The translations under genes were made by a program, and so were the position numbers. DNA of 59,341 nt, filler included, from Jimgerdemannia flammicorona (lineage: Eukaryota): NCBI GenBank assembly GCA_003990765.1. It is 3 parts of 3 records of this genome, joined end to end, with 100 filler letters (N's around TTAATTAATTAA, not from the genome) between each part and the next. Parts side by side here need not be neighbours in the genome. Positions count along the whole stretch, not along the records: positions 19,818 to 39,532 come from RBNJ01001868.1; 2 more parts are not named here. The stretch is one strand, 5' to 3'. This document shows positions 229 to 39,532 of the stretch, in pieces. The notes beneath the pieces were generated by a model, which did no database searches, had not been told where the DNA came from, and saw only the letters and a list, made by a program, of their open reading frames with translations. Numbering within the stretch: the stretch's first letter is position 1; each line of letters opens with the position of its first letter.

Positions 229-490
229 CCACTATATTGTTCTTCTTACTTTAACTTATATATTTATTTCTTCTAGATAACTAAGTTTAATACTGATTTC
301 TTGCTTGCTCCTTGTATTTGGGTATGACTAGTAGTATTCAATTTTAAATTATTTTCATATTCTATTGATAATTATTTATATCTATTCTTCTAATCTTTTT
401 CTGTTCAAAATAGATAATAATTTCATAGTAGAGCTTCTTATTTATAGTTAATTTACTAGTTAAGAGTCCTTCAGGATATCTATAAGAGAG
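229..490 (-). mobile_element. Inverted fragment of family-A gypsy pol (RNase H/integrase junction)
   Basis: Reverse complement aligns, with small deletions, to ~4831-5135 (e.g. ataaataagaagctctactat; aaagtaagaagaa-aatatagtgg). Confidence 0.75.
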
Positions 491-491
491 T

Positions 492-773
492 GATCTATAC
501 TTGTAGAAAATGACTCACAGAAAATATAATCATAACTTAGCCACCTTATAGCTAGAAAACTTGTATAAATATCCCAGTATCTAGAGTGAATAAACCTCTG
601 ATCAAAATAGTTCAAAGTAAAGAGAAAGCAAAGAAACTAATAAGCCTGTGAGAAGATATACTTTGAACTCATTCAATCCTGTATTCCAAGGACTCTGCAG
701 AGTCAAAGAAGATCAAGTTTTTAAGATACAGAAATTCAATATACTTCCAAGATTAAGTATCTGCTATAATACA
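492..773 (+). repeat. 5' LTR of family-A element (only the 3' part survives)
   Basis: Matches ~6735-7016; ends ...ctgctataataca versus ...ccgctacgttaca. Confidence 0.9.
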
Positions 774-874
774 ACTTGATACCTATTGGCTGGTGATTCA
801 ATATAAATCCCTCACTTTTAAGCTAAATAATAAACAACTACTACCACCTGAACTACTATATAAATTGAACTAAG

Positions 875-3800: not shown

Positions 3801-6099
3801 ATCACCAACTACTGCCCCTCATCAGTAACATTCTTATAACTCTGAGAGACAAAGTATAGTACTATAGTACCTTGGATCTATACTCAGGATTCCACCAAAT
3901 TGGACTCACAGAAATAGTAAGCAAGAAATCAGCCTTCATTACTCTAGATGGAACCTATGTATGTTTACCTACAAATGCTATTTGGAATATACAATGTACC
4001 AGTATGTTTCTAGCAAATAATGAACAAAATCTTCCAATTTGATATGGGAAGATAGATGATGATTTATGTGAATGATATGATTATTTACAGCCAGATACTA
4101 GAGGAATATCTGCAGCACATCTAGTAGATAATAGAAAAGCTGAGAAAGTATAGTCTGTACATTAAGCCCAAGAAATACAAATTTGTAGAAATTGAGATCT
4201 CCTATCTTGGCCACATAATTGACCAATATGGAACATATACTGACCCTCTCAAGATATAAGTAGTAGTAGCATACCCAAGGCTTACTACTGTTACTAAAAT
4301 CCAATCCTTCATAGGACTTGTCTTATACTACTGTCAATTTATCAGAAGATTCTCTAATATCACAGGTCTAATCTATGAACTCAATAAGAAGAATACAAAG
4401 TTCTAATAGACTGGCAGACAACAAAAGTATTTGATAAGCTTAAGGTCAGATTGACCCAGGTACCCATCCTCAGAAGACCTGATTGGACTTAAGAATTCAT
4501 CTTGCAGACAGATACAAGCACCCAAAGACTAGGAGCAGTTCTAGCTCAAAAGAAAGATAAAGTGGAGTATGTTATTGCATATCTAAGCCAAGGAACCTGA
4601 GGAGCCTAAAAAGAATATGAATCCTACAAATTGGAATGTCTTGCAGTTATCTGGGCTATAGAGAAGTTCCACTACTATCTTACCAGAAGATACTTCATTA
4701 TTTAGACAGACTACTCAGCCCTTACTTAACTCCTGACCATAGGACAACCCAAAGGAATCTATGCCAAATAGATCATGAAGTTACAAGCATATGATATAAC
4801 TATTATACACTGTCCAGTTAATACAGATACTCTCTCATAGATACTCTGAAGGACCTCCAACCAGTAAATCAATCATAAATAAGAAGCTCTACTATAGAAT
4901 CATTACTTATCTGGAACAGCAAAAGATGCCCCAACATCTGAAAGAATGGATACAAACAATTATCAACAAAATATGGAAACATTTCGAAACCAATGGAGAA
5001 ATATTTAAGAAAGGAAAGCTACTAGTTATACAAGAATATAAGAAAGAGCAAGCAATGAAATCAGTACACAAATTTAGCCATCTAGGAGGAATAAGTATAT
5101 ATGATAAAGTAAGAAGAATAATATAGTGGCCAGGAATGGAGAAAGATATTAGATGATTTGTTAAGACCTGTGACAAATGTCAGAAATAGAAATAAGATCA
5201 ATAAAATTAAGCCTCAGAATCAGCACACATAGAATCAGTACTATTTGCCCACATTGTAATAAATGTAATTGGTCCTCTACCCTTGACTTTAACTGAGAAC
5301 TAATATATCATTGTCATTATAGATCTTTTCATGAAATAGATAGAGACCAGATCTCTTAAGAAAGCTAATGTATAGTTAATTACTAATTTCTTTTATAAAG
5401 AAATTATCTGCTGGTTCAAGATCCCAATACAAGTAATCACAGACAGAGGAATAGAATTTGTAAATCAGTTCTTTGAGGTTCTCTATAAGAAGTATAAGAT
5501 CCAGCATATTCAGACCACAGCATCCATCCTTAAGGAAATGGACAAGCAGAAAGAACCAATAAGACTCTTAAGAATGTTATCACCAAGATCTGCAATAACT
5601 ACAAAACCTGAAATCACTATCTGCCAATAGTATTATCTGCTCTCTAGGATATTTGATCATAAAGTACCCATTTCACCTTTTAGAAAATACTATTTGGAGA
5701 AGAAAGTTCTCAAGAAACTCTATTATCTAATGAGAATACTGTATGAAAATATGTGGATAGAGAAATATGGAGACTATATCAAATCAGGAAGAAGGCGAGG
5801 ATTATATAACCAAGGTGCAAGCACTATAGTAGAATAATGTGAAAAAGGTTTATAAGTTCCTAGAGATTATTAAGATAGAAGACAAGGTCCTGGTATATTG
5901 GAATATAGTAGAAGCTTCATGGTCACAAAAACTGGAGCCTAAGTGGAAAGGATCTTACCTTGTGCAAGATATAAAAGGAACCACCTTTTGGCTATGAAAA
6001 CTCTCAGACACAATCATCCCTACTACTATTCACTAAAATCAACTCAAGAAGTATCATGACCAGTCAACAAAGTATAGCCACAGCTCTCAAGATCACTAG
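875..6099 (+). pseudogene. gag-pol polyprotein pseudogene of family-A element (start approximate)
   Basis: Domain motifs recognisable through many in-frame stops and a few frameshifts; ORF-track pieces 1530, 2006, 3274, 3656 and 4926 are fragments of it. Confidence 0.9.
2976..3366 (+). pseudogene. dUTPase domain inside family-A pol (between protease and RT)
   Basis: All five trimeric dUTPase motifs readable in decayed form: AGMDI, RSSLA, GRVINLDYIGEI, LAQMLI, KRDRKGFRSTG. Confidence 0.88.
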
Positions 6100-6580
6100 T
6101 GCTATACAATGAGTCATAGAAAGACAATGGTATACTATTGAGCTGCCTATGATAGAGGAATCCTTTGACAGTATCCAAAGCATAGTATAGACACATCTGT
6201 TATGAATTTCACACTTTAAGACCAACCAGAATTGAACAGAGCTTCAAGAATACTTCAAGTTAGAATAGTTACTAAACTTGCAGTCAGAGATAACAAAAGA
6301 AGATTGGATCAGAGAGTACTAGCTCTCCCACATTCAGATTACTATTACTAAATAAGTGTATAAGTTATTTAACAAGGATGAACCAGCCTTAGCTCACCTT
6401 TGGGAAGTGGTTCCAGGAGACTTCACATAAGTCAGAAGGCATCATTGGGAGATTGTGATAATACAGATTGCATAGTACAAAGAGATACAGATTATAGAGG
6501 CTTGGGAGTTTGAGTGAATAGGGTATTTCAGAGATGAATCACCTATTCAGGAGGAAGTTGTGATGGTTGATCTGAATTAG
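6056..6580 (+). pseudogene. Extra ORF3 after pol in family A, running into the 3' LTR; homologous to the LTR-encoded ORF of families B/C
   Basis: ATG overlaps the pol end; ~175 codons in one frame with scattered stops; contains ELQEYFKLE*LL and TK*VYKLFNKDEPALAHLWEVVPGDF, which aligns ungapped with the LTR-B ORF. Confidence 0.7.
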
Positions 6581-7016
6581 CAACATGAATCAGGGGAATA
6601 GACATTTGATCATGGTACCTGAATCTGATTCCCAAATATAGTATAGCCTTACAAATAGCAGCCATATTTTCACAAATGTAAAAATTCTACAGATGTAGAA
6701 TCTTCATAATTATAGAGATTTCACAGATGTAGAGGATCTATACTTGTTGAAAATGACTCACAGGAAACATAGTCATAACTTAGCCACCTTATAGCTAGCA
6801 AACTTTTATAAATATCCCAGTATCTAGAGTGAATAAACCTCAGATCAAAATAGTTCAAAGCAAAGAGAAAGCAAAGGAACTAGTAAGCCTGTGGGCAGAT
6901 ACACTTCAAACTCACCCACCCCTGCATTCTGAGGACTCGGCAGAGACAAAGAAGATCAAGTTTTCAAGATACAGAAATCTGACATACTTCCAAGGTTAAG
7001 TGTCCGCTACGTTACA
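6559..7016 (+). repeat. 3' LTR of family-A element (458 bp, TG...CA)
   Basis: Starts tgtgatgg after the PPT and ends gttaca; same boundaries as the solo copy at 30182-30644; contains TATAAATA and AATAAA. Confidence 0.92.
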
Positions 7017-10000
7017 ATGTATAACGTTGTAACGGAACCTGTTAAGCGTGAAAAATGACCCTGCAACGATATTCACCATAATTCCCATGAATCCGCTCGA
7101 TCCTCTAGAGACCCCTTTTAAGAGTCTGATAAAGGCGTTTTCTCAAGGAGCCTTTGGGAAAAATCAGGCGTAAATGTCGCGACTACCGAAAAAACGTCCG
7201 TTCAGGTCGGCCACGGAAGCTTCAGTATAAGAACATGACAGAAATGCATATGGATTCGAAGTCGGGGAGATTTCCATTGGAGACCTGGAGGTATTGCGCA
7301 GGTAGATGAGATTAAAATCGCTAAATATGATCAAGGATTGGACGGAATGCAAAGTAGGAAAATCGTGGATTGAATCGAATGCCAAATGGGAAAATCATGA
7401 ATTGAGTGATCCAAAATAGAAAAGCCAGTAAGGAATGCTACGGACCGAAAAATCAACCTTGGCGTACACTTTCCCAATAAAAGGACTTTCGTATTAACTT
7501 TTCCGTGACAACCAGGTTCAAAGGCGCCCGGCTTGGTGACGAAGAGGTCACAAAAGATGGCGATGCTGTTGGATTAACAATGACACTCCGTCTAATAAAC
7601 CTGGAGCGCTTCCCTAATCATGTAAAGCGGAATGTGAGCAACTCTTAAATCTTTCCAAAAAAGTAACTGCCGCCACCGTCTTCACTTGTCAACAAAACAA
7701 ACCTCCCGGATTCTAGCACCACGGGTTTCCCTCTCATCCTCGCCCTCGGCATCCTCGTCCACGGATTCCGCAAGGTTGATCACCTGAGCCGTGCTTGCTG
7801 GCGAGGCGGATGGTAGGACCTATGGCGGTGGAGGCGGTGCCGCGGATATCTTCTACGTATGAGAATAAATGCTCAGTTCATATAAGGCCAGCAGCGGAAA
7901 TTGACCATAATAACTGCACAGGGTGTACAGGCGCGAGAAATACAGAGTGGACGTGGAGAGATTAAAGCGGGAACAAACCCGATGCCAGGCGGTCGCAGTG
8001 TGAGCGTGAGAAGAGATCATGTGTGAATGGCGGACCAGACATTAAGGGGCCTTAGCATGAAAGTGGTGGACAAGAACATTACCCCTCATTGACAGCAAAG
8101 GACGGAAAGTTGAGGTTCCGGACAGAGACAAATAATCCCTACTATAGTTGTGACCTCGTGAGGTTAGTTGCGTAGTAGCGTATCGCTCTGAAAGTCCATC
8201 ACAAACAAGTGTCTTCGTCACTGTCGTCTTCGTCGTAGTCGCGTCTTCGTCGTCGCTCTTTGGTGAGGTATTAATTTCGGTGATGACGTCCTGCGCGTGG
8301 CACCACTCTGAAATTATCTGGTTATAAATGTTTGGGAGTCATACCAAAACAAGAAAATATCTCTAGTGGTCTAGTGGAAAAACAGTTCCCTGTGAGCTTA
8401 ATATGCCGGGCCTCGAGCTCGCTTTGTGGTCGCTTTACAGTTCTGAGTCTCCAGCAGAAGCTAGCGCCGAGACTTTTGCCATGCATATATTTGTAAGATA
8501 AACTGACAGCCGAACATAAAAGACCCTTATTTAGTGCTTTAAAGGGTATATTTGATTTATGAATTGGGGATAAGATATTTCTTTTAAAAAAAAATAAAAA
8601 AATAAAAAATTATATACTCCATGTCCCCATGACTCAGTGTCAATAGTCACCAATCACTTCTTTGCTTGTGCCTTGCCATAGGGTTGATGGTAGATGGAGG
8701 AAGATACTTCATACCACTTTACAGTACATCAGAAGACAGAACAAAAATTTATTTGTAATGTGCAAATTAAACTTAAAAGTTCAGGGTTTGGATTCACTCA
8801 ATCTCAACTGCCTTCCGGGATGGGCTTCATAAGAAAATACCAGTGTGGGCACAAAAGCCACACTGGTGCATCTACATGTCGGGCAAAGGTGGGCAATCAT
8901 GGCACTATTGTTCTTGATCACAACAGGTTTTGTAAACAAATGATTTCTCGAGAAAGTGACACATAATTAATTGGCACAGTAGTTGGACTTCAAGTTGGTT
9001 TGCATAGTTGCGCATGCATTCTAGATGGATCTCAATCTCGATTACCTCCCACAGTTGGCTTTTTCACATCTGGAGCATGGCTATTTAAATAATTTCGTCT
9101 CATTTAACCGTTCCTGTTATTATCGGACAATTTTAATTTCCGCAATTGTTCTGTTTGCATATGATGCATCGGAAGATCCTCTTGGCTAAAGTGTGCGTGT
9201 TTTCTTTAGGGTTGTGGGGAATCGCGGTATGCATCTATTCTATGCCACAGAGTTGCTACACATGGTAGAAATTTAGGCGGCTGGGATCGGTTTTTTCAGT
9301 TCGCTAAAAGTGCTTTTAAATATTCGCGCTCCCGCGATTTCCCAACAAACACAACAGATACTTCTTTCCGTCATGATGAGGCCTTGGTCATGGTATCTTT
9401 TGTGGCCAATATATCCATTAATTTATTGCCACAATATGAAACTCGCATACTATCTCTTATATCTTTTTATGATTTTTATACACAAGTTACTTATAAAATT
9501 AAATTTTTTGTTTTTTGTTTTTTGGAAAAAGTAATATTTCCAGATTTTCTTTTATTAATTCAAAGTTTTTATAATTAAAAAAATTTTTTGTGCAAATTTT
9601 AATATTAAACAAACCAATTGATATCTCAACACATTTGTCAAAAAATGGTTAACACTCATGTAGCAAGTTAGTTACATTGAAAGGCCCCATTCCTCTGTAA
9701 TTTCGGCTCTGCATTTGCTTCCTATTTTGGATGAGCCACGAAGTCAAGACTGACCATGAATGCGCATCCTTTATGTCGATGCTAAAATTTGAGATATCCT
9801 GAAGGAGAATTACAAAACTTTGGAACCGAAGTCGGCATCCTTTTATTGCATCACAGCGGCGGAGGTACCTTTGGATTTAAAAATCAAACTGCCAAATGTC
9901 TCAAAGGTCGGGCATATGTGCACATTGCTAAATTTGGGGGTGAAACAGGATACAAAACATAGAACGAGGAGCAAGTGTTTTCGTATAATATTGTTATATG

Positions 10001-19717: not shown

Positions 19718-19817
19718 NNNNNNNNNNNNNNNNNNNNNNNNNNNNNNNNNNNNNNNNNNNNTTAATTAATTAANNNNNNNNNNNNNNNNNNNNNNNNNNN
19801 NNNNNNNNNNNNNNNNN
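19718..19817. other. Artificial contig linker N44-TTAATTAATTAA-N44
   Basis: Exactly 100 bp, stops in all six frames, identical to 39533-39632. Confidence 0.97.
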
Positions 19818-19958: not shown

Positions 19959-21430
19959 TATAGTCCTCAAACTTCTTATCTTTAAACTGTCTTGTTATCT
20001 CTTTAGATTGCTTATAAGAAATTGTATGTAAGTGAATCAGAACTGACTTTATTTCAAAGGAAATAAGAAGAGTATTTATACAAAATATAATTCAATGGTT
20101 GCTAAGATATAAGACTAAATATAAATTCCAATAATTAAATAAAAATACTGATATATAGTTCCAGTGTTGGTACAGATAGTTGTACAGATTCAGGATACTG
20201 GTATAATTTCGATAATACAGGAAAATAGTACTGGAATAATTCTGAGTCACACAAGATCAGAATGCTAGTAGAGGAACAGCTATTACACAAGAAAAGGATG
20301 CTGGCATAATTCAGTATAACTTAGAGCAGAAAGTTCAGAACCATGGGGGCTTCATCTTCATCAGAGGTCAAGATGTCTTTGAAGGAAATGAGATCAGTTT
20401 TATTCATCTCATCATTATATAGATCACTCATTTTGCATATATTGCATATTTTACATATGTCACATATTTCACATATGTCAGGCAGGATGATGTCATTGCC
20501 AATGACATCATCATATTTGATAGCAGCAGGAACAAGGAGATCTGGGGCTCTCTCATCTATGAGGTTTTCTTCCACAAAATAGAGAACAAATGTGGGGTCT
20601 TGGAGAGGTGTTGTTCTGGATACTGGGGCCTTGGAATGCAGAGATCAATCCTTGCAGAAATTGATCTGGGTTGTTCTGGAGGATGGAATATCAGAAGTCT
20701 TCTACTTCATCACTATTGAGGGTGATAGTAGACTGGGCTTCTGTAGCCACCCTGGCTTCTAGTACATTGATACAGTGGGCTGACAGATCTCTAAAGTCTG
20801 AGACTCTAACATATTCTAAATTGGGGATTGATTATGGTGCATGCTCGAAGATCTGATAAATCTTCTTAGCTATTCTTACTTCATATATATCCATAGGAGT
20901 GGCATCTTGTAACTCTTGTGGGCTGGCCTGTGGGAACTCCCAGCAGAGGAGGTTTCCTATTTCATACTCCTGCCATATTTGGAGGCATTCAGTAACAATA
21001 GTGATCCTTGTTTCCATTTCATGGTAGTAGAGAATAAAATAATAAGAATACCCAGTACCTAGGTTGAGGCTAGGAGTCCTTCTGTGTGGGTCCTCATGGC
21101 TCTTCTGATATCTTGGAACATCCTTTCTTCAACTGAGATACCTTGGTAGTTCCTTGACCTTGAGGTTTGGCGAGTAGCAGGCATTTCATTTGTAGTAAGT
21201 CTTTGAGCTATTTTGGGATTGATGGGTCTTATTGAGTTGCTGCTACTGTGGTTCCTTGATTCTTCTTTTATATTTCTCAAGATATCTGTTTTGTGATCAC
21301 AATGACTCACATTACTCATCTCATAGCCTGGGTGAGTCATGCTATATAATCTTCTTATGCTCTGATCTAGTGACTTATAAGGAAAGACTGTCTTCTGTGC
21401 TGATGTCATTATTCTGAGGTCACCATTACA
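19959..21430 (-). repeat. Family-B long LTR, copy 1 (3' end interrupted)
   Basis: Reverse complement starts tgtaatggtgacctcagaataatgacatcagcac and aligns to 24875-26258. Confidence 0.9.
20321..21184 (-). pseudogene. LTR-encoded ORF in LTR-B copy 1 (frameshift and stops)
   Basis: MPATRQTSRSRNYQGISVEERMFQDIRRAMRTH ... METRITIVTECLQIWQEYEIGNLL ... EAPMVLNFLL; 1-bp deletion near 21085 relative to copy 2. Confidence 0.85.
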
Positions 21431-22260
21431 ATACTTAAAAGATCCTTGAACATTTCAATATGAGTAAATACAAACCCATTGGCACTCCTATAGTTACTTC
21501 TATAAAGTTATAAAAGCCAAATACTATACTTAAGAGTAATGACAATATACTCACCAAAAACATTCTCTATTAATAAGCAGTTAGTGTTCTTATATATTTC
21601 AAGTTAGGAATAATGTCTAATATATTATATACTATTAATAAGGTGGTGCAGTATTCCTCTTACTATGATAATTTATATTAGAGGACTATTAAGAGAATTT
21701 TCAGATACTTAAAGAGATTAGTATACTATATACTTATATTAGATAGTAGTGATATTAGATTAAGTAGGAGCAATAGTGAGAGAAATGAGATCTGACTATT
21801 TAGTATATGTGATACTGATGGGATAAAAGACCTTGACAACTACTAATCTATACTGAATATCTCTTTTATATTAATAGAAGTAATAATAAAGGAGTCATTT
21901 CATAGCAAACATATAAGTAATTATCTACAATATAGGTAGAGTACTAAGTATTGTCAAGTATAATAAAGAAAACTATATATATAGCTTTATAAGCTATTAA
22001 AAAAACTCAAATTTACTCAAAAATGGAGTACTATACTATATCAGAATAATCAGTCTATAATTGTACTCACTAAAAATTTAGTATATTATAATAAAATAAA
22101 ACATATTAATATATAGTATCATTTCATAGAAATATATAGAAAACAGTACTATATGCCTGATATATTCTCATAAAGTATATGATTGTCAATTCACTTATAA
22201 AAGCCCTTCTAAAGTTAAAGTTTGAGTAATGCATTAAAGAAATGGATCTTATAAGCTATA
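21431..22260 (+). mobile_element. Hypermutated Ty1/copia RT C-terminus and RNase H remnant
   Basis: Decayed copia motifs: KILEHFNMSKYKPIGTP; IKRIFRYLK; CDTDGIKDLDN (YCDADWAGDLD); LSTI*VEY; NNQSIIVLTKNLVYYNKIKHINI*YHFI (DNQSAIAL.KNPV.H.RTKHIDIRYHFI); MIVNSLIKAL. Confidence 0.85.
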
Positions 22261-23400: not shown

Positions 23401-23560
23401 GTTAAGTGAAGACTAAAGAAAGAGAGAGTAAAGCGGGGTATTGTTTATTATTTCAGATAGTACATATTTATATATTGAGTAATATAACTTAAAGATAATA
23501 TAGTTATATATATAAGTTATATATATAAGTTATCAAGATAATAGAAATTTCAAAAAATAT

Positions 23561-23760
23561 CACTCCTAGATCTGATTATCATCAACTAAAACTAGAATAT
23601 AAAGTTTAATCAAAAGAACTACCAATTTGGATGAGCTGCCAGGCACACCTATTACTATTTTATAAAATAGAAAGGATATTCTGAGTATGATACCACCTGG
23701 GAAAAAGAAGATAATCTTTTGCCAAATATAGAAGAAGTAGTAATCTGATATAGATATCTA
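23561..23760 (+). mobile_element. Chromodomain remnant, probably from a chromoviral gypsy integrase
   Basis: YYFIK*KGYSEYDTTWEKEDNL matches the chromodomain YLVKWKGY....TWE.E.NL motif, preceded by PDLII..LEYKV. Confidence 0.7.
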
Positions 23761-25116
23761 GTATAATGGAAATTCTATCAGAATTTCTGAAAGATAGCCA
23801 TGCTCTTGAATATTTCTAACAAAGAGAAGTATAAATAATCTAAATAATTCTATACTAATAATCCACTACAATATAAGTATTCAGCAAAGACATTGAGAAT
23901 AAACTAAGAATAAGATTATTACTACTGTTCTTATAACTATTGAATATTAATAGAATTCTACTAAACTATTCTCTGTCAATATATAAATCTCTAGAGACCC
24001 AGACCCAAATAAAGCTCAATAATGTCTTAGAAGAATCCAATATTTCCAGACCTTCCACTACTAATAAGAATTAAAGAAGTACTATAAGATCAGATATCTC
24101 ATCTATCAATAAGCTACTCTTAGTAGTACTAAGTAATAAGTCTGTCTTTTTATTAATAATTATATCTATATTATTGCAAAAGCTTTACATTTATTTCTAT
24201 ACCCAAGTCTAAGTCCTTGACTATCTCTATGAAGAATTTCCTGAGAACATCATTAATTTGAGTAATAAATAATAGAGTAATGTTTTTTTTAAATAGTTCA
24301 GTATATCTCTCTTCAGTTTGATAAGTGTTTAGAGTTTAGTATTAAATCTAATGAGTAGGTTCAGATAAAGAAAAAAAGGATATAATAAATTATTATATAC
24401 CTACAAGTTACTATAATATCTTATAGAAATTTTAATAGAAATTTTAATGGAAATTTCTATAAAATTTTTAACTAGCAGTTATAGATACTGAATATAGTAT
24501 AACTATATAGATATATCTAGTATACTATATTTAGTTATAGCTTTAAATTTATATAAATATCCTCTACACTGAGTATATTATAATCTCAGCTCTACTTTTT
24601 CTAAATATAAGAATAAAACAGTATTCATATTATAAAACTCTCAGATTTGACTTGTTAATAATTCTAAGTCTAATCAACTTGAGATATATGTATGGTCCTT
24701 TCATTAGTATAAGAACTCAAAAGCAATACTTAGACTATATCACTATAATAGATAATTGAAACTTAGTGCTTCCTCACAAGTACTTAGAACTTAGAGCTGA
24801 TAATTATCTTAATTATCTATAATATATTAATTCTATTAGAATATAGTTTTATTACAATATATATATATATATATTGTAACGGTGACTCCAGAATGATGAC
24901 ATCAGCACAAGAGACAGCCTTTTCTTGCAAGCCACCAGATCGAAGCACAAGAAGATCATACAGCATATGAGATGAGCAATGATGACCAACTGTGAGTCAT
25001 TGTGACCACAGCACAAGCATCCTGAAGATTATAAAAGAAGGATCAAGGAACCGCAGTAGCAGCAACCAACAAGAACCACTAATCCCAAAATAGCTCAAAG
25101 ACTTACCACAAACGAA

Positions 25117-25932
25117 ATGCCTGCTGCCCACCAAACCTCAAGGTCAAGGAACCACCAAGGTATCTCAGTTGAGGAAAGGATGTTCCAAGACATCAGAAGA
25201 GCCATGAGGACCCACTCAAGAAGGACTCCTAGTGTCTACCTGAGTACTGCAGACCCTTATCACTTTATTCTCTACCACCGTGAAATGGAAACAAGGATCA
25301 CCATCACCACTGAATGCCTCCAAATATAGCAGGAGTACGAAATAGGAAACCTCCTCTGCCGGGAGTTCCCACAGGCCAGCACCCAAGAGCTACAAGATGC
25401 CACTCCCATGGATATATGTGAAACAAGGACAGCTAAGAAGATCCATCAGATCTTCAGGTATGCACCATGGTTGATCCCCAACCTGGAGTATGTTAGAGTC
25501 TCAGACTTCAGAGACCTGTCATCCCGCCGCATCAATGCACTAGAAGCCAGGGTGGCTACAGAAGCCCAGTCCACTATCACCCTCAACAGCGAAGAAGTAG
25601 AAGACTTCTGGCACCCCATCCTTCAGGACAACCCAGACCAGTTCCTGCAAGGGTTGATCTCAGTATTCCAAGGCCCAAGCATCCGGGTTACATCCCCCCA
25701 AGACCCCACATTTGTCCCCTATTTTGTGGAAGAGAACCTCATAGACTGGAGAGCTCCAGATCTTGTTCCCGATTTTCCTGCCACTGCCGAACATGATGAC
25801 GTCATCGGCGATGACGTCATCATCGACATATGCGAAGCATACAAAAACGATGAATTCGCAGATCTCATCTCCTTCAGTGATGATGATGATGATGATGATG
25901 AAGCCCCCATGGTCCTGAACTTCCTGCTCTAA
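25117..25932 (+). pseudogene. 271-codon LTR-encoded ORF of unknown function with one in-frame TAG (ancestral TGG)
   Basis: ORF-track pieces 25117 and 25408 are in the same frame; the TAG at 25327-25329 is TGG (Trp) in copy 1 and in the family-C 5' LTR; acidic C-terminus. Confidence 0.88.
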
Positions 25933-25939
25933 GTTCTTT

Positions 25940-26066
25940 GTTACACTGGATAATGCCAGCACCTGTATTCTCATGTAACACCAGATAATGCCAGCACTGG
26001 TATTCTGAGGTGACGCGAAATTGTTCCAGCACCAGCATTTTGATGTGACACTAAATAATGCCAGCC
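25940..26066 (+). repeat. ~35-bp tandem repeats (x3-4) in LTR-B U3, enhancer-like position
   Basis: Recurrent (g/a)taacac..gataatgccagcac..gtattct units between the ORF stop and the TATA box. Confidence 0.6.
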
Positions 26067-26830
26067 TTGGAACTTAGTAGTTTTAGTTATTGAAATTTAT
26101 ATTTAGCTTTATATCTTAGCAACCATTGAATTATATTTTGTATAAATACCCCTCTTATTTCCTCTGAAATAAAGTCAGTCAAGTTCACCTACACACACTT
26201 CCTTGCAAGCAATCTAAGAGATAACAAGACAGTTAAAGATAAGAAGTTTGAGGACTATAAGACCTTGGGAAGGCACTCCAATAAGAACTTGCTTATAACA
26301 AACTTGAGTTAGTCTAAGAGATACACCTTAAAGAGAATCTGGCGTATTTGAAGAACTCAGCGACCACTACGTGACAATATATATAATAAGTCTACTATAC
26401 TCACTTCTAATTTATAACTATAAGTAACTGATTATTATATATCTATTAACTTATAATCTTACTTAATATTACTTATTAATTCTTGATTTAATGATAACAT
26501 ATTATATATATTATAATAATACTATTATAATAGAGTTCATTATTATTCTGAAATCTATTAGAGTAATATATATAAAAATTTCAAAATAAGCTTTCAGAGA
26601 GTACAACTATTATTTTAATTCTTTTTATAACTGACAAAACTTATATCAATATTATGAAATAAAAAAAGAACTTACTCTATATATTTTATAATTAGAAATA
26701 TTTATAAAGTTCAATAACAAATCTATTTTATAGATATATATATAGTTGTTGGCTATCTTCTTATTCTTACAGATAATGCTTTAGAGTAGAAAAATTGAAA
26801 TTTAAAGAAGATATTTGTATATCTGTCATA

Positions 26831-28350: not shown

Positions 28351-29101
28351 TACTTGAGTATCTGAAATAATCAGAACCTAAGAAAGAGATAATATAAGAA
28401 TCTAATAAAAGAGTATAACAGTGTTTTCTAATTATTTAATTCTTCTAAATAAATTATTTTAAGATATATTAGATCTATTTTATTAAACAAAGAACTAACT
28501 GTTCAATCTATACTATAAAGTATAACAAATTTACTGATATTACTAAGATATATCTACTATATAATATTCATTTAATATATCAAATTATAGAGAAGACTGA
28601 AACCTCAAAATATAGAGATATATATTATTTAAAGCAAATGAACTTTATAAAATGCATAATTCTTTCTGAAATTTATCTTGTATAAATTATATAATAGTTA
28701 TTAGAAGTATTATACTTCTTGAGATATTCTTCTTAGTATTATACTATATATAGTTTATATATCTAAAGCTTGCTTAGAGATATCTTTAAAAAGATCTCTT
28801 TTATCTTATTAAATTCTTTCAGAGATTAATTTTGTGATAATATCTTCAAAATCAGTGATATTAATTTTAGAAGACTGCTCAGACTTTGTAAGCTATTAGT
28901 TGTAAATTATAATCCAACTATGACTCATCTTGATTATAAGATGATCTACATCTAAACTCATAATGACTCATAATGACTCTAGTGATATACTATTCCAAAT
29001 TAGGTAACTCTACTCTCTGAACTAAAGAAGAAGACCCTCAAGATATAAAAGAAGCAATAAGAAAAAAAGAGCAAGATATCAAATAAGAGACTTATTATAA
29101 A

Positions 29102-30001
29102 ATGCCTACTATCTACCAAACAGTAAGATCAAGAAGCCATCCAGGCCCATCAGTTCAAGGATAAATATTCACCAATATCAAGAGAGTCATAAGGTTATAT
29201 AGAAAAAGAACTTTAAGCCTGAACCTCTATACAAGAGATCTCTACCACTATACCCTCAACTACTATGAAATGAAGATAAAAATTACCACCACTACTGAGT
29301 ATCTTTAGATGTGGCAAGAATATAAAAAGAGACATTACCTCTGTTAAGACTTCTCATAAGTCAGCTCTTAAAAAATTATAGATACTACTTGTATAGATAG
29401 ATATGAACAGAAATTAACCAAAAGAGTTCATCAGATCTTTAGGTATATATTCTGATCCATTCCTAATCAAAGTTTCTGATATTCAAGAACTAATAAGCTG
29501 TCATATAGACTACTTTGAAGAAATGGTTGCAGAAGAAGCCCAATCCTATCATCACATTTAAGAGTGATGAAATTCAAGACCTTTGGAACTCTATTTTAGA
29601 GAACAATCCAGACCAATTCATCTATAGTTAATTGTACTATTTTAAGACTCTCTCTTGAAAGTCTACTTCTCTCAGAATTCTACAGATATTTTTTACTTTA
29701 TGAATGACAATACTATTGACTAGAGACCTTAAGAGTAGAATGACTATATGCTCTTTGATAATATCATCAACAATAATATCACTCTATAAAACAACTTAGA
29801 GAATAGTGGCAACCTACTTATTTTACTAGAAGATGATATCAACAGCTTCTTTTCCTCACCCCCAGAGCCCCTCACTGACTTCAGCACAATTGTAGAGGAT
29901 GTAGAAAATGATTTAGTCAGACCCCCAGAAGAGAAGAAGAATGAGGATAATATAATCTCAGTTATATTAAATGAGGATGACTCTATTAGCCAAATTAATT
30001 A
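29102..30001 (+). pseudogene. LTR-encoded ORF homolog in the family-C 5' LTR (end approximate)
   Basis: MPTIYQTVRSRSHPGPSVQG*IFTNIKRVIR...YEMKIKITTTTEYL*MWQEYK...ILENNPDQFI...FMNDNTID*R, colinear with the LTR-B ORF; repeated from ATG 39270 in the 3' LTR. Confidence 0.8.
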
Positions 30002-30181
30002 AGTTAGTTAGTTAGACAAATAATAACTGTGAATTAACTAGCCCAATTTATCATAAATATAAAATTAGTCTTATTAGTTAATTAGTTATCTGAATTTCAA
30101 AACAATATTAATTAGTATCTTCTAGTAATTATAGGTTATAATAAATTACCTAGTATTATATATAGTTTGAAAACTATATAA

Positions 30182-30644
30182 TGTAATGTAGTGGATACTT
30201 AACTGTAGTCAGATTTCTGTATCTTGAAAACATAATCTTCTTTGACTCTGTAGAGTTCTTAGGATACAGGGGTGGGTAAGTTCAAAATGTATCTGTCTGC
30301 AGGCTTACTAGTTTTTTTGCTTTCTCTTTACTTTGAACTATTTTGATCTGAGGTTTATTCACTCTAGATACTGGAGATATTTATATAAGTTTGCTAGCTA
30401 TAAGGTGGTTAAATTATGACTATGTTATGAGTCACTTTTTATAAATATTAATCCTTGATATCTATTAAATATTGATGATTATCAAGACTTTAACATTTGT
30501 AAATTCTTGATATTTGTGAAGAGTTTAATGTTGTGAAATAACTGCTATTTATATGGCTATACTATATCAGGAATTGAGTTCAGATACTGTGATCAAATAT
30601 CTAATTTCTCTGATTCTTATTCCTAATTCAGATCAACTGTCACA
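30182..30644 (-). mobile_element. Family-A solo LTR inserted into the family-C 5' LTR, TSD ATAA
   Basis: Reverse complement of 6559-7016 end to end; ATAA at 30178-30181 and 30645-30648. Confidence 0.92.
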
Positions 30645-33600
30645 ATAAATACTCCCTCTGATCTATAGTAAATAAACCTCAATCAATTGGTTTTACCAAC
30701 TTAAGTTCTAAAAGACAAGAAAGTTGAGTGTAAGAACTTTGGAAAAAGTCTCCAAGAGCTGAAGAATTTACTCTTATTGCTACTAAGAAACTTGAGATAT
30801 AAGTCAGTCAGATTAAGATCACTATAGAAAATTAGATATAAGATCCAAAAAACTCAAGATATAAGTTAGCCAGATAAAACTACTATAGAAATCAGATATA
30901 AGACCCAGGAAATCTACCAGGAAACTCAAGAACAATATGTGATATAAGTGATTACTTCTTTTGATATATAATTCAAATGATTATCATATGATCAACAACT
31001 TGAGATATGTGAACTTCAACTTGATATAAATAAATCAAATAGCAGTTAAAACAAATATTGAGCCAGAATATTATTTGATAAGAAGATAAATAGTATATAG
31101 ATATCTAGTAACATATTGAGCTATATATCTTTTTAGCAAAATAAGATATATAAATCAGATACTATATTTTGAGGACTCAACTGGAAAAGGTTTCTAAAAA
31201 CTTAACTATTTGGCTTAAGAAGCCAGTAGCTATCTATAGTGAAGAATTCAGAAGAAACTAGCCAACAGTAAGACTAGGGCCAATAACTATCTACTTTAGA
31301 AAGAAAAGCTCACACCATTGCCAAGATAGTCCAGAAAACTGAATCAGAAAAAAGAAGTGATACAAATTATGGTTTGACCTTAAAGAAAAGAAAATAACTT
31401 AGAGGACAACTTGAGTCTTCTAGATCTAAAGCCCAGAACAAGGAGAATATTTTTCTGGAGAATATCAGACTCTAATCTACAGAAGAGATTTAGACAGAAG
31501 TGACTACATTACTACTATCATCACTCAAGCTACTCTATTAGATTAAGCATATTTTGTAATATTAGAAGGAGAAGAAGACTACTATCCTTACCTTTTAGAA
31601 TAAGAGAAAGATAATAATTAAAGAAGTCAACCAGATTACTCAAGAGACAAATTCAATCTTTATTACTACTTAGATAGTAATATAGACCCTTGGCAAGATG
31701 AACAGAACTCTGCTGCTTCATAATAGCAAGGGGCAGATAAACTGAACATTAGTTACATCATTTCAATTCCAATTACCAGAATCTCAATACTCTGGTCCTT
31801 TATACTCCAATACTATCTACAAGAGACAAGAAGCTCTAGCCCTCTCAGTACCTCAGTATTTAGTGACCACTATCACTCAATTAGAGAACCACTACCATAA
31901 GAACATCTATCTCAGCTTTAATTAGAAGGGCCAGACTCTCTATACTCTCACTAAGACATCACTTTTTGCCAGTACTACCAGTTCATTAAGTATCTCTACC
32001 TTCTCCATCTTTATAAGAATTATTAAGAAACTCAACCTCAGAACCAAACTCAGACATTGAAGATAAATCAGATATAAGCTATCTTCAGAAATTCTATAGT
32101 ACAGATAGTGAAGATATTAAGAAATTCTTTGAAGAATTTGAAGTATAAGTAGCAGTAAAGCAGTAAAATATCTAAAAAAATCTCAGAATTGTAGAATCAC
32201 TTCTGAGAGGTCTTGTTCTACAGAAGTATAATCAAGTAAAGCAAATTGAAGGAGATATCTATGGAGCAGAACAAGCCAATAACTTTTGAGTAAATAGAGA
32301 CCATGTGAATAGATATAATATCTATAAAACCTGGCTCTACATATAGTTTAATGGTCTTGAGCACTAATAGGAAGTATAAGAAGCTTTAATCTACATGAGC
32401 CAAGCCATCAATTAAACTCCAAAGACTTCTACTATTAGATTCAAGCTCAAATAATTAAGGCAAACTTGCAATCTATAGTCTAACTAGCCCTGGTCTCAAC
32501 TATCTTCCTCAATGGAATATTTTCAGAGCTCTAAAGATAAGTCATTAGAATAGGCTATTGAAGTATTAAGCAGTAAGTTGCTGAAGTATATAGATGCTAG
32601 AAAGTAGACTATAGTCTATTCCAGCAAGTATAAGAATATTAAGAATCAGCTCAAGCTGAAACCTTAAGGACTTATAGAACAACTATATAAAAAGAGAATA
32701 TCTACTTGAGAGCCCTATTGGCCAGCTGTGAGACCAGACTCCCACCCCCAATTCCAACTCAATACAGGTAACAACAGCAGCCTCTACTAAGAATTCAAGA
32801 AGATTTCATAATAATACTCACTAAACAAATAAAAGGTCTGACCATTGTGATTGCCCAGTTAAAGAATCAAGGGAGAAGATAACAAGATTATTATTAAGAT
32901 AATAGACCAGACTATCAGTAGTAAGATAACTGGATTTCTACTTAGACCCCACTAGTTATAACCATAGATTTATCAGCAATAGGTTCTTATACTCTAACTT
33001 ACTTTAACTGTAGAAACCAAGGTTACATTCAGAGGTTTTGTCCAAAGAAACAAACTTCATCTAATTATAGAAATATCAACCTCATTTAAGTAGATGAAGA
33101 GACTTAAGAAATAGAAGTAAAAGCTATCTGACTTTATGGCCAAAAGGATACCTATCTATACCATGAAGTCTTTCTCTCTAAGATAACTTAGGATATAGTA
33201 TCTATACAGACTAGAGAATGAGGAAGACCTCTAAGGACCCTGCTTCTACTATCATTGCTAGTAACCATATCTACCAACAAACATCTAAGATATGGTCATT
33301 TCTTCTTAGATACTCTTTAGGAGAAAGATAAGAGAGTCAGAAGAGATACCCCTGAACCAGAAGCTGGCTCATCAAGAGTATTGAGAAGTACCTCTCTGCC
33401 TGACCTTGAAGAAAAAGAGCATATAAGTATAGAGTCTTTAGCTGATAAAATACCTAATAAAAATGAGAGGATCTACTATAAGAGACCTAGATATTGAAGG
33501 AGTAGTAAGCTCTATGAAGCAGCATCACTTTGAGAATATCACTGTACTCAGAATATAGATCTTACAGTTGAACAAGTCCTTAAGAATATACTAGAAGTTA

Positions 33601-35179
33601 GATAAAAATTCCTGAAAAAAGCCAAAGATGATACTAAGAGAATCTTTGTCCAAGAACTATATATACTGAAGCCTAGTACTATCTATATAGTTTATGAATA
33701 TTAGCACTAAGAACATCAATCCATAAGACTAGTTAATAGAAAAGTATATGGTAAAAATGTCAGAATCCTTGTTGATACTGGAGTAGCTATTTACATCATC
33801 ACCCAGTGAATATTAGAAATAATTGAGTAGAGAATTAATAAAGGAACCAAAGCAAGTGTTATCAGGGCAGATGGATCAGTATCCACCTCTCTTGGATTAG
33901 TTAGAGAAATATCTATACAAGTTGGAAAGATCTGCCTCAACATATCTTAAGCTATCATAACTCCAGAAACCTCCTATGATCTGATTTTGGAAACTGACTA
34001 GTTGCATCAAGTTGGAGCCAATATAGATATATATTAAGAAACAACTCCTGGTCTTTACCTTCTATAAACAAATGTACAAGATACCAATTGAGTCAAAAAG
34101 ATCAAGAAGAGCAAGTCAGACCTCTAAGATAGAATAATAAGGACATAGAGATATATTTACTACTACAGAAGATAAAAGTGAAGCAAACTTCCTGTAAGAA
34201 TTCAGAAGTGATTTTGGTATCCCTAGAGACTCTGGAAGTAGTTAAGATCTTTTTGTTGAAGTTATTAATACTGAAAGCCTAGAAGTAAGTACTGATTTGG
34301 CTATTAGCAAAAAAGTAGTACTTGAATTTACAGAACTATCTATATACAATTACCCCCTCCTCTGAATTATATGAGCTATCTGCCTAGGTATGTGTGAACC
34401 CTACAATCATTTCTACTTACTAAGAGATGATTATAGCAACTGCCAAATCCTTGATCTCAAAAAGATTTCAATACTAGTAATCAAAAACAAGGATGAGTTA
34501 AAATGAGCCCCAGTCCACAGATAAATACAACTACCTACTCTAAAGGTTTTCAAGAAGACCTACAAGAAAGAACAAAAGATTCTCTCTCACCAATCTTTAG
34601 AGATCCTCACAATTAAAGACAATAACAATAGTATCTATACTATTATCTGAGCCCTCCTACCTATCTATGATAAATATCAAAAGAGATACCCAACAAGTAA
34701 GAAAATCAAATAGCAGAATGAGAAATTCATCAAAAAAGAATACTGTGATTGTGAAAAGACCTTTATTTATTACTGGTATGAAAATCAAAGTGTCTATCTC
34801 AGTGAAGATACCTACAAGAGCCAAGTTAAGAGAAAGGATTCCACCTTATAAGAATCTTGAATTTGCTGGGTCTATTGGAAATATAAAGAGATCAACTATG
34901 AAGGAGACTATAAAGTCAAGAACAAGATCTCCATCTGGGACCTATCATTAAAAGTTCTTGCCATCATTAATTGGTATTGCTGGCTACACCATGACAGACA
35001 AGGAGTCAACCTTGTCTTTACTTTCATAAAAGCCTCAGATCTACTTAGAAAAAACTGAATTTACCTATACAAGAAACCCAAAGACTAGAGTATATTGGTC
35101 ATTCTTTAAGTCTGAATGTATAGAGTTCTCACCTATAGTAGCAACTACTGAAGTGATATTTCTCAAGACCCAGCCAATC

Positions 35180-35584
35180 ATTTAAGTTAAACCACTATCA
35201 TCTTAGGTACAACCTCCTCTTATGCAAATAGAAGAATTAATAGAATATGACCTCTGACTTCTCTATCAGGCGATACTCTATCCTAGGACAACTTGGACCT
35301 TTGACCATTAAATTACACTTACTATACCATTTAGACATTATAGATAACTAGTATTAAGATCATCTCTAGCAGTCAAAGAAATTACAGTAAAAGGAGGAAA
35401 TATTGATCAGGATTATTGAGGTCATCTGAAGGTCATTATTTACAATAATAATAGAAATCACTAAGTCTTCAACCCCTTGGAGGCCATCTGTCAAATTCTA
35501 TTTATTAAGATATTGCAACCTATTATTCAAGAGGTAAATCAACTAGACAGTACTAAGAGAGAATAAGGAGGTTTTGAAAGTACC
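35180..35584 (+). pseudogene. dUTPase domain inside family-C pol
   Basis: IEYDL (AGYDL), RSSLAVK, GGNIDQDY*G, AICQIL, KRE*GGFEST (RG.GGFGST). Confidence 0.88.
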
Positions 35585-38500
35585 AATAGAACTTCTCAAC
35601 TACCACCCATTAAAGTCTACTTAGCAACAGTAGCTCAGTTTCAATAAATGAAACCATATATCTATCTGAGCAAGAGAAGATATCTTCCTTCAACTATATC
35701 AAATAAAGAAGCCTTGATATATCTACCTGAGGATACCAATAACTGGATATTCGAGCCATCAATAAAACTCCAAGAAAAGTATCACCTCCTTCTGGCTGAA
35801 GAATGAATCCAAGATCAGATATCACCAATTTACATTCCTATCCAAAACCTAGACTTTGAAGTAGTAACAATTCTCAGAAAAATAATATTAGGATATTTTG
35901 AACCACTGATAAATACCTATGAGAAAGAGGTCTTTAAATTTTTAGAAAACAGCAAGCTCTCTCAAGTGAGACTGACAGTATCAGAGAGGAAGACTCAGCA
36001 ATCAAAACTATCAATATCAAGACAACTCTGATCAAGGATCAGTAATAATAGATTCAGAAGTTGATAGAAGAATATAAAGATATATTTACCACCATATATA
36101 ATAACTTTCCACTATATAAATTTAGAGAATATGCAATATATAAAAAGATGTCAAACCAATCCAATAATATTCCTGCTGAATACCATACTACTTGATTGAG
36201 TTTGAATAATAATATATAGATGAAATGCTATGAAACAGAGTTATCAGACCCTCATCAAGCCCCTAGGCTTTACCAGCAATTATAGTATCAAAGAAAGGAG
36301 AATGAAGACTAGTTGTAGACTTTAGAAAACTTAACAAAGTTACTATAGAAGATATCTACTCACTGCTAAGAATTGATGACCTCCTCAATGTTTTTGACAA
36401 AGCCAAGTACATAACTACTACTGATCAGTTTTAAGGATTTCAAGTGATACCTATTGCCAAGAATGATATCTGCAAGATAGTCTTCATCACTAGATGAGAA
36501 CAGTATAAATACCTCTAAATGTTATTTAGACTCTACAATGTACCAGCCTCATTCTAGTAAATAATGAACTATATCTACTAAGACCTTATTAAAAGAAATA
36601 TACTAGTATATATAGATAATATAATTATCCACTTTGAGACATTTGAATAATATCTATAAAGTATTTGATACTATCCAAAATTCAGGACTCAGACTTAATG
36701 CCAAGAAATACTTCTTTGGAAAACACTAAATCAAATATCTGGGATATGTAATTTCAGCCCAAGGAACTCATACTGACCTGTATAAGGTGGAGAAAGTTAA
36801 GAATTATTCAACTTCTATCTATACAACAGAAGTTCTATTTTTTCTTATATTAGTATCTTATTACTGGTGATTTATCCTAAGATTTTCAGACAAGACAGCT
36901 CCACTATATGATATCTCTAAGAAAGAACAACTATTCTACTAGAGAGAAGAATAGCAGAAGTCATTTGACCTACTCAAGAAGGCCCTCACTGAAGCTCCTA
37001 TTTTAGTATAATTAGACTTTAATAAACTATTCATCTTGGCAACTGATGTCTCTACCCTTAGACTTAGATCAATTCTATCTCAACAAGATAACTAGAAGAA
37101 GAAATATATTATTGAGTATTCTAGTAAGACTACTAATAAGATATAAGCAAACTATGAAGCCACTAAGCTGAAATACCTTATAATAGTATGAGCTATAGAT
37201 CACTTCAGACACTATCTCTTAGGAAAGAGATTTGTCCTTATCACTGACTACTAAGCTCTATAATAGTTGTTCAACAAACCAGAGTCCTCAGGAATCTTTG
37301 CCAGATGGATCATGTCTCTATAAGAATACCAGTTCACTATTATCTATAAGAAAGGTGTTAAGAATTCCAATATTGATATCTTGTCAAGGATCCTATGAAC
37401 TCAATAAGAAGAGAAGAAGTCACCTTGAGAGAAGGCTGCTTCCCACTTACTCAAATGAACCAAGAACTACACCTTGCCCTCACCTGGAGTATGTATTATA
37501 GAAATTTCAAAAAAGGAATTTAGCTGGCTCATAAGCTGTTTATTCAAAGAAATTTCAAAAAATTTCAAGAAGGTGATGACAAACTTTAGAGAGTAGAAGA
37601 AGATCGATATCTGAGTTCTATAAGAAGATGAAATACTGAAGATACTTATAACTAATTATGATCAGAATATATACTGAGGAATTGGAGTCACTATTGCAAG
37701 AATTAAGAAAAGATACTGATAGTCAAAAATGAGGAAATAAATTTTGACACATATTTAACAATATGATATCTGTCAAAGATACCAATAGAAGCCAACTGAT
37801 AAAGTACTACTAATGCCAATTCCAGTATCAGCTGGAGCCTTTTAAAGACTAGAAATAGGCATCATTGGTATCTTACTAATAACTAGTTAAGGAAGATGCT
37901 ATATTCTCACCATTGAAGATCATCTGACAAAATGATCTGAAGCCTTTATTATTAAGACTACTGATGCTCAAACAATTATTGAGATTCTATATAATAAAAT
38001 TTTTAGCCACTATAGTATTCTCAAAGAAATCATCATAGACCAAGACTGAGAATTTATCAATAAAGCCATGAAGATCTTTGCAGATAACTTTAAGATCAAA
38101 CTGCAACTAATAATAGCTTATTATTTATAAGCAAATAGACTTACTAAATGAATGAACTAGACCATCAAGCAAGGTCCCAGCAAAACTAGAGATTAATTAA
38201 ACTGAGATATTTATCTTTCAGCAATCTTATTCAGTATCTACACTTCAAAGATGACTGCTACCCAACAGACCTCTTTCTATTTAATATATAGCTAAGAAGT
38301 ATATATAAGATTCCACTAAACCAATCCAGCTGGATTTGGCAAAACAAGTTACTGAAGAGATCATCTGGTTATATAAAGTATGCCAACAAGTATGAAAATT
38401 TATTATTAAGACATAAGAACAATAAAAGAAGTACTATGACTACAAGGCTGATCTTGAATCTCTGCTTATTAGATAATAAGTCTTAGTATACTATACTATT

Positions 38501-39011
38501 ATAGAAGAAAACTAGAAAAAAAAAAAAAATAGAAGGAAACTAGAGTGTCAAACTCAATCTGAAATGGGAAGAACCCTATCTTATATATTAGGGATTCACA
38601 AATCACACCTACTAACTCAAGATCCTAGATGAAGTTATACTCAAGACCAAGATACACTGTAACTATATAAGATCTTACTACTTAGTAGAAGTAAACCACA
38701 TTTGAACAACTTCTTTTACTCAATCTATATCATCTTTATTGAAGAATGATGGATGCTTCTTTTAGAACTCAAGAAGCTGACAATACTGGAACTATTCTCA
38801 AGCCTACTATATAATAGATATTACTACTAGAAAATGCCTCAGATTATAGAAAAATCCATTTCTGAGAGATTCAAACCCCCAGCTGTAACAATGAGAGCCC
38901 TCACCCTAGAATAGTCAATCCTCACAAATATACTAATAGTTTATTCAATAAAGGAATCAAGACCTATTATTCTTATATAATTATCACTGCTTTAATTTTG
39001 TAAGAAGCAGA

Positions 39012-39532
39012 TGTGATGATATCTTTAAAACCAGTAACATTAGAATTCAAAAAACTATCTAGACTTTGCAAGCTATTAGTTGCAAATTATAACTCAACTA
39101 TAACTCATCTTGATTATAAGATAATCTGCATCCAAACTCATAATGACTTATGATATACTACTTCAAATTAGGTAACCCTACTCTCTAAACCAAAAAAAAA
39201 GACTCTCAAGATATAAAAGAAGTAATAAGAAGAAAAGTGCAAGGTATTAAATAAGAGACTTACTACAAAATGTCTGCCATCTATCAAATAGCAAGGTTAA
39301 GGAGCTATTTATGCCCATCAGTTTAAGAACAAATACTCACTGATATTAAGTAGGCCATGAGATTATATATAAGAAGGACTTTAAACCTAAACCTCTATAT
39401 AAGGGATCCCTATCACTATACTCTCAACTACTATGAAATAGAGATAAGAATCACTACTGCTACTGAGTGCCTTTGAATATAGCAAGAATATAAAAAGAGA
39501 TATTACCTCTATTAAGAATTCTCTTTTTTTTT
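39012..39532 (+). repeat. 3' LTR of family-C element, truncated
   Basis: Aligns to 28833-~29355. Confidence 0.9.

Follow-up and report, generated by a model that had tools for sequence, protein, structure and literature searches.

Can a fungal retrotransposon's long terminal repeat (LTR) carry a gene of its own? Fungal LTR retrotransposons are normally described as gag and pol between noncoding LTRs, and genes coded inside the LTR are the hallmark of a few complex vertebrate retroviruses. The question is raised by a 59,341-nt stretch of DNA from Jimgerdemannia flammicorona (assembly GCA_003990765.1), hereafter the window, in which a solo LTR of a gypsy-type family, here named family B, encloses an open reading frame (ORF) of 271 codons. 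We propose, at a probability of roughly 0.62, that this ORF is a true accessory gene belonging to one dUTPase-bearing Ty3/gypsy lineage, lying wholly inside the unique 3' region (U3) of its LTR.

The LTR-borne reading frame and its protein family

The frame runs from an ATG at 25117 to a stop codon at 25930-25932, with a single in-frame TAG at 25327-25329. The initial annotation had described a 271-codon frame broken by one TGG-to-TAG change, and the frame was confirmed; a second family-B copy in the window has TGG at this codon. Contigs of three public runs (X1, X2 and X3; Logan) were compared with the LTR for base differences only. The middle base of the TAG, position 25328, reads G in related contigs, at a depth of 835/835 in X1, 71.6/71.6 in X3 and 7.73/32.4 in X2. 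Among the 40 variant rows listed of 220, 15 of the 31 variant sites in the ORF are synonymous (48%), where 21% would be expected over all single changes and 33% over transitions. Several nonsynonymous variants (Y41N, S43G, I70M, stop71W, Y115H and L119S) shift the solo copy towards residues present in its close relatives, and this copy therefore bears private damage. With one stop allowed, the open frame extends over 290 codons, a length that none of 1000 dinucleotide shuffles equalled (maximum 234).

An intact version of the gene was found outside the window. A 1345-nt contig, L001, the lone DNA locus retrieved from metagenome contigs, carries an intact ORF of 323 codons that is of the type found in family C, the other LTR family of the window with such a frame. 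Its stop-to-stop frame of 343 codons was likewise equalled by none of 1000 shuffles (maximum 213). No related locus was found among viral contigs or among prokaryote genome contigs. At the protein level, a word-indexed search of 5.8 billion proteins followed by BLASTP gave 6 relatives from 290 candidates, at 58-85% identity, and 5 clusters passed E<=0.001 (best E 1.7e-13) when a profile was searched against 1.84 billion representatives. Intact members include P0003 (271 aa), P0013 and P0015 (323 aa each) and P0010 (342 aa). Even where amino-acid identity to P0003 is 41-77%, the frames remain unbroken over 271-342 codons. JGI and ENA assemblies are the only source of the relatives, whose contigs measure 540-4848 nt, and the only name given to them is 'hypothetical protein'. 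The candidate search returned no relative longer than 475 aa, and no fused form was seen among 918 longer candidates, which is weak evidence.

Selection was measured between the family-B ORF and the L001 ORF over 269 aligned codons, at 56% amino-acid and 66% nucleotide identity. Identity at codon positions 1, 2 and 3 is 65/78/54%. The ratio of nonsynonymous to synonymous substitution rates (dN/dS) is 0.23 by NG86, 0.26 by maximum likelihood, 0.34 by LWL85 and 0.36 by YN00; it is lower in the core (codons 1-215, 0.19) than in the tail (0.47). The initial annotation had proposed an undescribed protein under purifying selection and had named dN/dS between families B and C as a check; values of 0.23-0.36, not near 1, together with the intact relatives of 271, 323 and 342 aa, bear the proposal out. 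As judged from these comparisons, the ORF represents a genuine conserved protein family that is under purifying selection between LTR families B and C.

The protein has three recognizable parts. Its N-terminus is basic (MPA..QT.RSR...RRAMR), the net charge of the first 40 residues ranging from +1 to +8. The conserved core, predicted to be helix-rich, contains W(Q/H)EYEI, HQ(I/V)F(R)HAPW, WNP(I/L)LQDNPDQ(F/W)L, FQGPP and PYF..E..I.WR. The tail is acidic, with 56-117 residues and a net charge of -14 to -25; F-x-x-L in an acidic context occurs in 6 of the 10 members checked, and the motifs DLIxF and a terminal P-x-V/T-L-N-F are kept even in members at 41-48% identity. Searches for function were negative: Pfam returned no family for the query at E<=1, a sequence-profile search of the PDB gave 0 matches at E<=10, and the best match in the ESM Atlas, an unnamed cluster at 0.91 with recognition under the threshold of the tool, was uninformative. 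Among 17 members, the Pfam matches (E>=0.026) were to ATG5_HBR in 3 (best E 0.028), NpmA in 1 and GAE_BBS1 in 1, and they were rejected as chance-level. In the searches made, the LTR-borne proteins are thus, as far as sequence can tell, a new protein family with no matching fold.

LTR anatomy and carrier elements

The unit that holds the ORF has the marks of an LTR. The initial annotation had described a 1502-bp LTR with TG..CA ends and a 4-bp target-site duplication, and both the termini, opening with TGTAACGG and closing with CGTGACA, and the flanking ATAT copies can be read directly. The ATAT duplication is weak evidence on its own, because the insertion site is a TA microsatellite, a (TA)n run. 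Neither flank holds gypsy gag or pol, only Tc1/mariner-like and copia remnants, and the unit is therefore a solo LTR; no full family-B element lies within the window. Its GC content is 44.8% versus 22-23% in the flanks, its TA/AT index is low (0.69), and it looks like a young insertion in already degraded DNA. The left flank (21434-24874) retains, on the minus strand, remains of a decayed copia-type gag (Retrotran_gag_2, E 1.6e-4) and, on the plus strand, a weak match to a chromodomain (E 0.003). The right flank holds a decayed Tc1/mariner-like transposase on the minus strand (~27200-27430; Pfam DDE_3, E 2.8e-5), bracketed by 70-nt inverted repeats at 26863-26932 and 28260-28329 that are 91% complementary.

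That the ORF-bearing unit is a true LTR follows from family C, whose copies flank a gag-protease (PR)-dUTPase-reverse transcriptase (RT)-RNase H-integrase (INT) region, with a purine-rich tract, GTAAGAAGCAGA, immediately preceding the 3' copy. Stop-masked translations of this region gave Pfam matches to aspartic protease, dUTPase, RNase H, the integrase zinc-binding domain and the integrase core; the RT motif and a C-x2-C...C zinc-knuckle remnant of gag were identified by eye. The two family-C LTRs are 82% identical. The dUTPase lies between protease and RT (~35240-35590, Pfam E 3e-19), as it does in a third gypsy family, family A (~2990-3370, E 7e-20). The family-A element has a complete body (PR, dUTPase, RT, RNase H and INT), and its short LTRs served as a comparison.

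Within the LTR, a few signals recur in a constant order: a TATA box (TATA1), the ATG and ORF, a second TATA box (TATA2) and an AATAAA are found in this succession in every copy, including the independent contig L001. In 5/5 copies (the solo LTR, the second family-B LTR, both family-C LTRs and L001), the sequence (A/T)TATAAAAG precedes the ATG by 58-87 nt. The spacing is 58 nt for the family-C 5' LTR, 64 nt for L001 and 87 nt for family B, and position -3 of the ATG is A in the ORF-bearing copies. At TATA2, GTATAAATAC/T-CCC is kept in both family-B LTRs, in L001 and in both ORF-less family-A LTRs; in family C the module begins at ATAAATAC, the point at which a nested fragment interrupts it. Around the AATAAA, (T)GAA(T)AAA(C)CTCAG is kept in 6/6 aligned LTRs, among them the two ORF-less family-A LTRs. 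From the ORF stop, TATA2 is 208 nt and the AATAAA 235 nt away in the solo LTR; across copies the gap from stop to TATA2 is about 210-240 nt, and the AATAAA lies ~200 nt from the CA end.

Comparison with family A sets the limits of the gene. Its 288-bp LTRs carry the TATA2-AATAAA module ~75 nt from the 5' end, and their end, CGCTACGTTACA, resembles the family-B end, CCACTACGTGACA. As these LTRs have the module without TATA1 and the ORF, TATA1 and the ORF are a discrete ~1.2-kb block in U3. The gene thus looks like a separate cassette within U3, apparently placed upstream of a core promoter common to the group. More specifically, the ORF lies wholly within U3, upstream of the putative core promoter and of the repeat region (R), with the presumed U3/R border placed by the module common with ORF-less LTRs. 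The solo LTR retains the whole cassette (TATA1, ORF and TATA2-AATAAA in 24875-26376), in agreement with the initial annotation, which had the solo LTR carry its own gene.

The other copies in the window are less well preserved. Further copies of the ORF had been placed by the initial annotation in another family-B LTR and in the two family-C LTRs, and tblastn recovered all of them at those places (29102-29996, 39270-39521 and, on the minus strand, 21184-20324). As a correction to that annotation, the LTRs around them are incomplete or interrupted. The second family-B LTR is not complete, being broken off at 19959 near a contig join, and neither family-C LTR is intact, the 5' one being interrupted by a nested fragment (30175-30645) and the 3' one ending at 39532. 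All three copies carry several stops and frameshifts. The second family-B LTR matches the solo LTR at 76.6% identity over 1499 nt; its ORF, in the frames that match, is broken by two frameshifts and 2 stops. Of the 221 differences between the two, 130 are C>T (83) or G>A (47), and these two changes make up 187 of the 343 differences between L001 and the family-C 5' LTR. Their commonest context is CpA, as in mutation resembling repeat-induced point mutation (RIP).

The nested fragment matches family A in inverted orientation (6558-7023 against 30645-30175, 78.7% over 483 nt by self-BLAST) and sits exactly at the TATA2 box of the family-C 5' LTR. When C>T and G>A changes are tolerated in the alignment, this LTR can be seen to continue from 30645, where the TATA2-AATAAA module follows, up to its end (..TGTGATA) at 30944, its terminal CA reading TA, a RIP-type change. 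The alternative of a composite family-C LTR ending in a family-A-type LTR was rejected on this alignment.

The window contains two joining linkers of 100 nt each (19718-19817 and 39533-39632), both made of 44 N, TTAATTAATTAA and 44 N; the former is 141 nt from the break of the second family-B LTR, and the latter cuts the family-C 3' LTR. As the linkers are artificial joins of three contigs, order and distance across them carry no meaning. The features are collected in the table.

Table. Coordinates of the LTR-borne ORF, its LTRs, signals and carrier elements, counted along the whole window
Feature	Position	Strand	Remarks
LTR-borne ORF, 271 codons + stop	25117..25932	+	frame, homologs, dN/dS, shuffles, related contigs
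Family-B solo LTR, 1502 bp	24875..26376	+	TGTAAC...GTGACA termini; flanks without gypsy gag/pol
Left target-site duplication copy, ATAT, 4 bp	24871..24874	.	identical to 26377-26380
Right target-site duplication copy, ATAT	26377..26380	.	direct reading
TATA1 (TATAAAAG), putative LTR-gene promoter	25030..25037	+	87 nt upstream of ATG
TATA2 (TATAAATA), putative core promoter of genomic RNA near U3/R border	26141..26148	+	conservation
AATAAA, putative polyadenylation signal	26168..26173	+	19 nt after TATA2
Second family-B LTR, truncated 3'	19959..21433	-	decayed ORF, ATG 21184, stop 20321
Family-C 5' LTR	28833..30944	+	starts TGTGAT; decayed ORF 29102-30004; interrupted at TATA2
Nested inverted family-A-like fragment	30175..30645	-	3' LTR + ~197 nt internal sequence
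Family-C Ty3/gypsy internal region	30945..39015	+	gag (zinc-knuckle remnant), PR, dUTPase, RT, RNase H, INT
Family-C 3' LTR, start only	39016..39532	+	starts TGTGAT; ORF start 39270; cut by contig-join linker
Family-A gypsy element, comparison	487..7017	+	288-bp LTRs 487-774 and 6731-7017; without TATA1, without ORF

A proposed two-promoter model and its alternatives

How could an LTR express such a gene and still serve its element? TATA2 would drive the genomic RNA, with a start some 25-40 nt after TATA2, at or just past the AATAAA, so that the signal of the 5' LTR would be escaped and the transcript would run into gag-pol; in the 3' LTR the AATAAA would be transcribed and used. Retroviruses with a short R handle the two-LTR polyadenylation problem in this way. 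TATA1 would drive a separate mRNA of ~1.1 kb ending at the AATAAA of the same LTR, and the short ORF mRNA would be available from any LTR. As this mRNA would end within the LTR in which it begins, a 5', 3' or solo LTR would each be a self-contained gene cassette. We consider this two-promoter arrangement likely but unproven.

Other explanations give the same frame a different meaning. Genomic RNA may itself start at TATA1, in which case the ORF would lie in a very long R (or R and the unique 5' region, U5) and be the first frame of the full-length RNA. This would suit the presence of TATA1 upstream of all else in the LTR in every one of the five copies, yet the family-A LTRs hold only TATA2-AATAAA and their element is complete in body, so that TATA2 would be the promoter common to the group. 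In addition, judged by retroviral polyadenylation control, a TATA1 transcript should mostly end at the AATAAA ~1.1 kb on, still in the 5' LTR, and we regard such a leader cistron as quite unlikely. It is also unlikely, if less so, that the ORF is a passenger, meaning a host gene captured into U3 with its own promoter and having no role in the life cycle of the element. The cassette does resemble a gene lacking introns, equipped with a TATA box and 5' untranslated region of its own and set in an otherwise short LTR (compare family A), and in bdelloid rotifers LTR elements are reported to have captured extra ORFs (PMC5408684). However, a useless 0.8-kb cargo should decay or vanish, and this gene occupies the same place in two LTR families ~34% apart in nucleotides, with the low dN/dS given above. 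Moreover, the relatives found never exceed 475 aa, bear the name 'hypothetical protein' at most and occur only on short JGI/ENA contigs.

The frame could in principle code for nothing, as a by-product of selection on the DNA (enhancer elements, for example) or of chance, and the empty Pfam, PDB and fold searches and the low confidence of the structure models would fit this. Against it stand the codon-position identities, the shuffles, which never attain the observed frames, and the 271-342-codon frames that stay intact in relatives at 41-77% amino-acid identity, and we hold a noncoding origin to be highly improbable. Least probable of all is an origin from gag or env, as a fragment that was displaced or has diverged; the initial annotation had named this test, and nothing was found in favour of such an origin. 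No gag or env Pfam family appears in any of the 17 members, there is no PDB sequence match, and none to the gag or pol carried by the elements of the window; gag, with its zinc-knuckle remnant, is separately placed in the internal region. When five members were run by tblastn against the whole window, only the four LTR copies were found at E<0.01, with none in the internal regions of families A and C.

Several points weigh against an accessory gene in U3. The best of the four copies in the window has a stop and the other three are badly decayed; the LTR contexts examined number 5 (4 in the window and L001), a small base, and the protein family is very small and narrow. With dS at 0.9-1.4, near saturation, the dN/dS ratio is imprecise, and NG86 gives no dS for codons 70-140. 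No recognizable primer-binding site complementary to a tRNA follows the family-C 5' LTR end at 30944, in a stretch that is heavily mutated. AlphaFold2 models reached a mean pLDDT (predicted local distance difference test) of 38.7 with 7 sequences and 48.5 with 17, and no fold backs any function. Purifying selection on a transposon gene leaves its role unspecified, and the promoter use, transcript ends and translation proposed here are deduced from sequence.

What the accessory gene may do is a matter of speculation. Bulky hydrophobic residues within an acidic tail recall acidic activation domains, and composition would fit, at low confidence, a nuclear regulator or adaptor, such as a trans-activator of its own LTR. 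Extending this, every LTR, solo LTRs included, may be an autonomous gene for a nuclear factor acting in trans on the LTR promoters of the family or against host silencing, a proposal that we consider doubtful. If it were true, hundreds of 'dead' solo LTRs would keep feeding the activity of a few full-length elements, and a retrovirus-style regulatory gene, like Tas or Tax, would have arisen independently in a fungal retrotransposon. A selected U3 gene with an apparent promoter of its own would in itself show that retrotransposons, too, gave rise to such 'complex' organization. Solo LTRs, for the most part regarded as inert scars and at best as promoters, could turn out to be loci that code for protein and are masked by annotation. 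In an organism whose repeats come under RIP-like mutation, the gene would be a candidate for a regulator or counter-defence factor encoded by a transposon.

Comparison with known systems and other features of the window

Genes borne by U3 or overlapping it are known in vertebrate retroviruses, namely sag of mouse mammary tumour virus (MMTV), nef of human and simian immunodeficiency viruses (HIV/SIV) and the bel genes of foamy viruses with their internal promoter. A close likeness is to sag, a full frame inside U3 and so present in both LTRs and in solo LTRs, with a polyadenylation signal near the core promoter, downstream of the ORF. MMTV differs in being a betaretrovirus of a vertebrate host, whereas the ORF studied here belongs to a gypsy-type retrotransposon, probably fungal; unlike sag, it has a putative TATA box of its own immediately upstream. 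Sag is a membrane glycoprotein, in contrast to the basic N-terminus and acidic tail of the LTR protein, and no sequence relation was found: neither Sag nor any known retroviral accessory protein was matched by Pfam (query and 17 members) or by the PDB profile search. Foamy virus tas/bet and HIV/SIV nef are likewise 3'-proximal accessory genes that reach into U3, and in foamy virus a second promoter, apart from the LTR core, drives a trans-activator with an acidic activation domain, which offers a model for the LTR ORF. However, tas/bet and nef only overlap U3 and start internally, whereas the LTR ORF lies entirely in the LTR; no homology was found.

Among fungal elements the parallels are looser. 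In Botrytis cinerea, gypsy elements of the Boty-like kind have a further gene in antisense, brtn (Zhao et al. 2011, as cited in PMC8365987), which shares with the LTR ORF its being an extra gene of unknown function beyond gag and pol in a fungal Ty3/gypsy element; brtn is described as antisense, whereas the LTR ORF is sense and inside the LTR. Fungal chromoviruses that bear a dUTPase include PosPlaTy3-5 of Postia placenta and Tmt1 of Tuber (PMC2864245), the former with its dUTPase between PR and RT as in families A and C. The available part of that paper mentions no ORF within the LTR; the legend of its Figure 3 has an 'add. ORF' of unknown function. Variation of the crapaud element clusters in a U3 of <200 bp, and the available part of the source describes only gag and pol ORFs (PMC10787394). 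The initial annotation had known of no LTR-encoded accessory gene in a fungal Ty3/gypsy element, and our search of full-text literature (subscription papers, figures and supplements lay outside its scope) found none either. What appears to be new here is thus a conserved and selected LTR-borne protein, undescribed for fungal gypsy elements; U3-borne accessory genes of retroviruses were already known.

A fungal host is suggested by the RIP-like C>T/G>A decay, by an NmrA-like gene and by the occurrence of dUTPase gypsy elements in fungi (PMC2864245). Host-like frames with weak matches are found to NmrA-like (53178-53846, plus strand), BTB (55319-55804, minus strand) and C2H2 zinc-finger (57966-58436, minus strand) domains, which are compatible with a fungal genome and no proof of one. 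These frames belong to the third contig, which is gene-rich and also contains a GC-rich 77-nt unit (AGGCGCGCC...) in four repeats (43369-43805) and segmental duplications at 68-84% identity (40208-40412/43083-43286 and 41996-42774/44188-44966). An Rfam scan of the window gave no match. Just upstream of the family-A 5' LTR lies an inverted 314-nt copy (72% identity) of the family-A integrase region (224-499 versus 4822-5133), which points to further nesting or rearrangement near this element.

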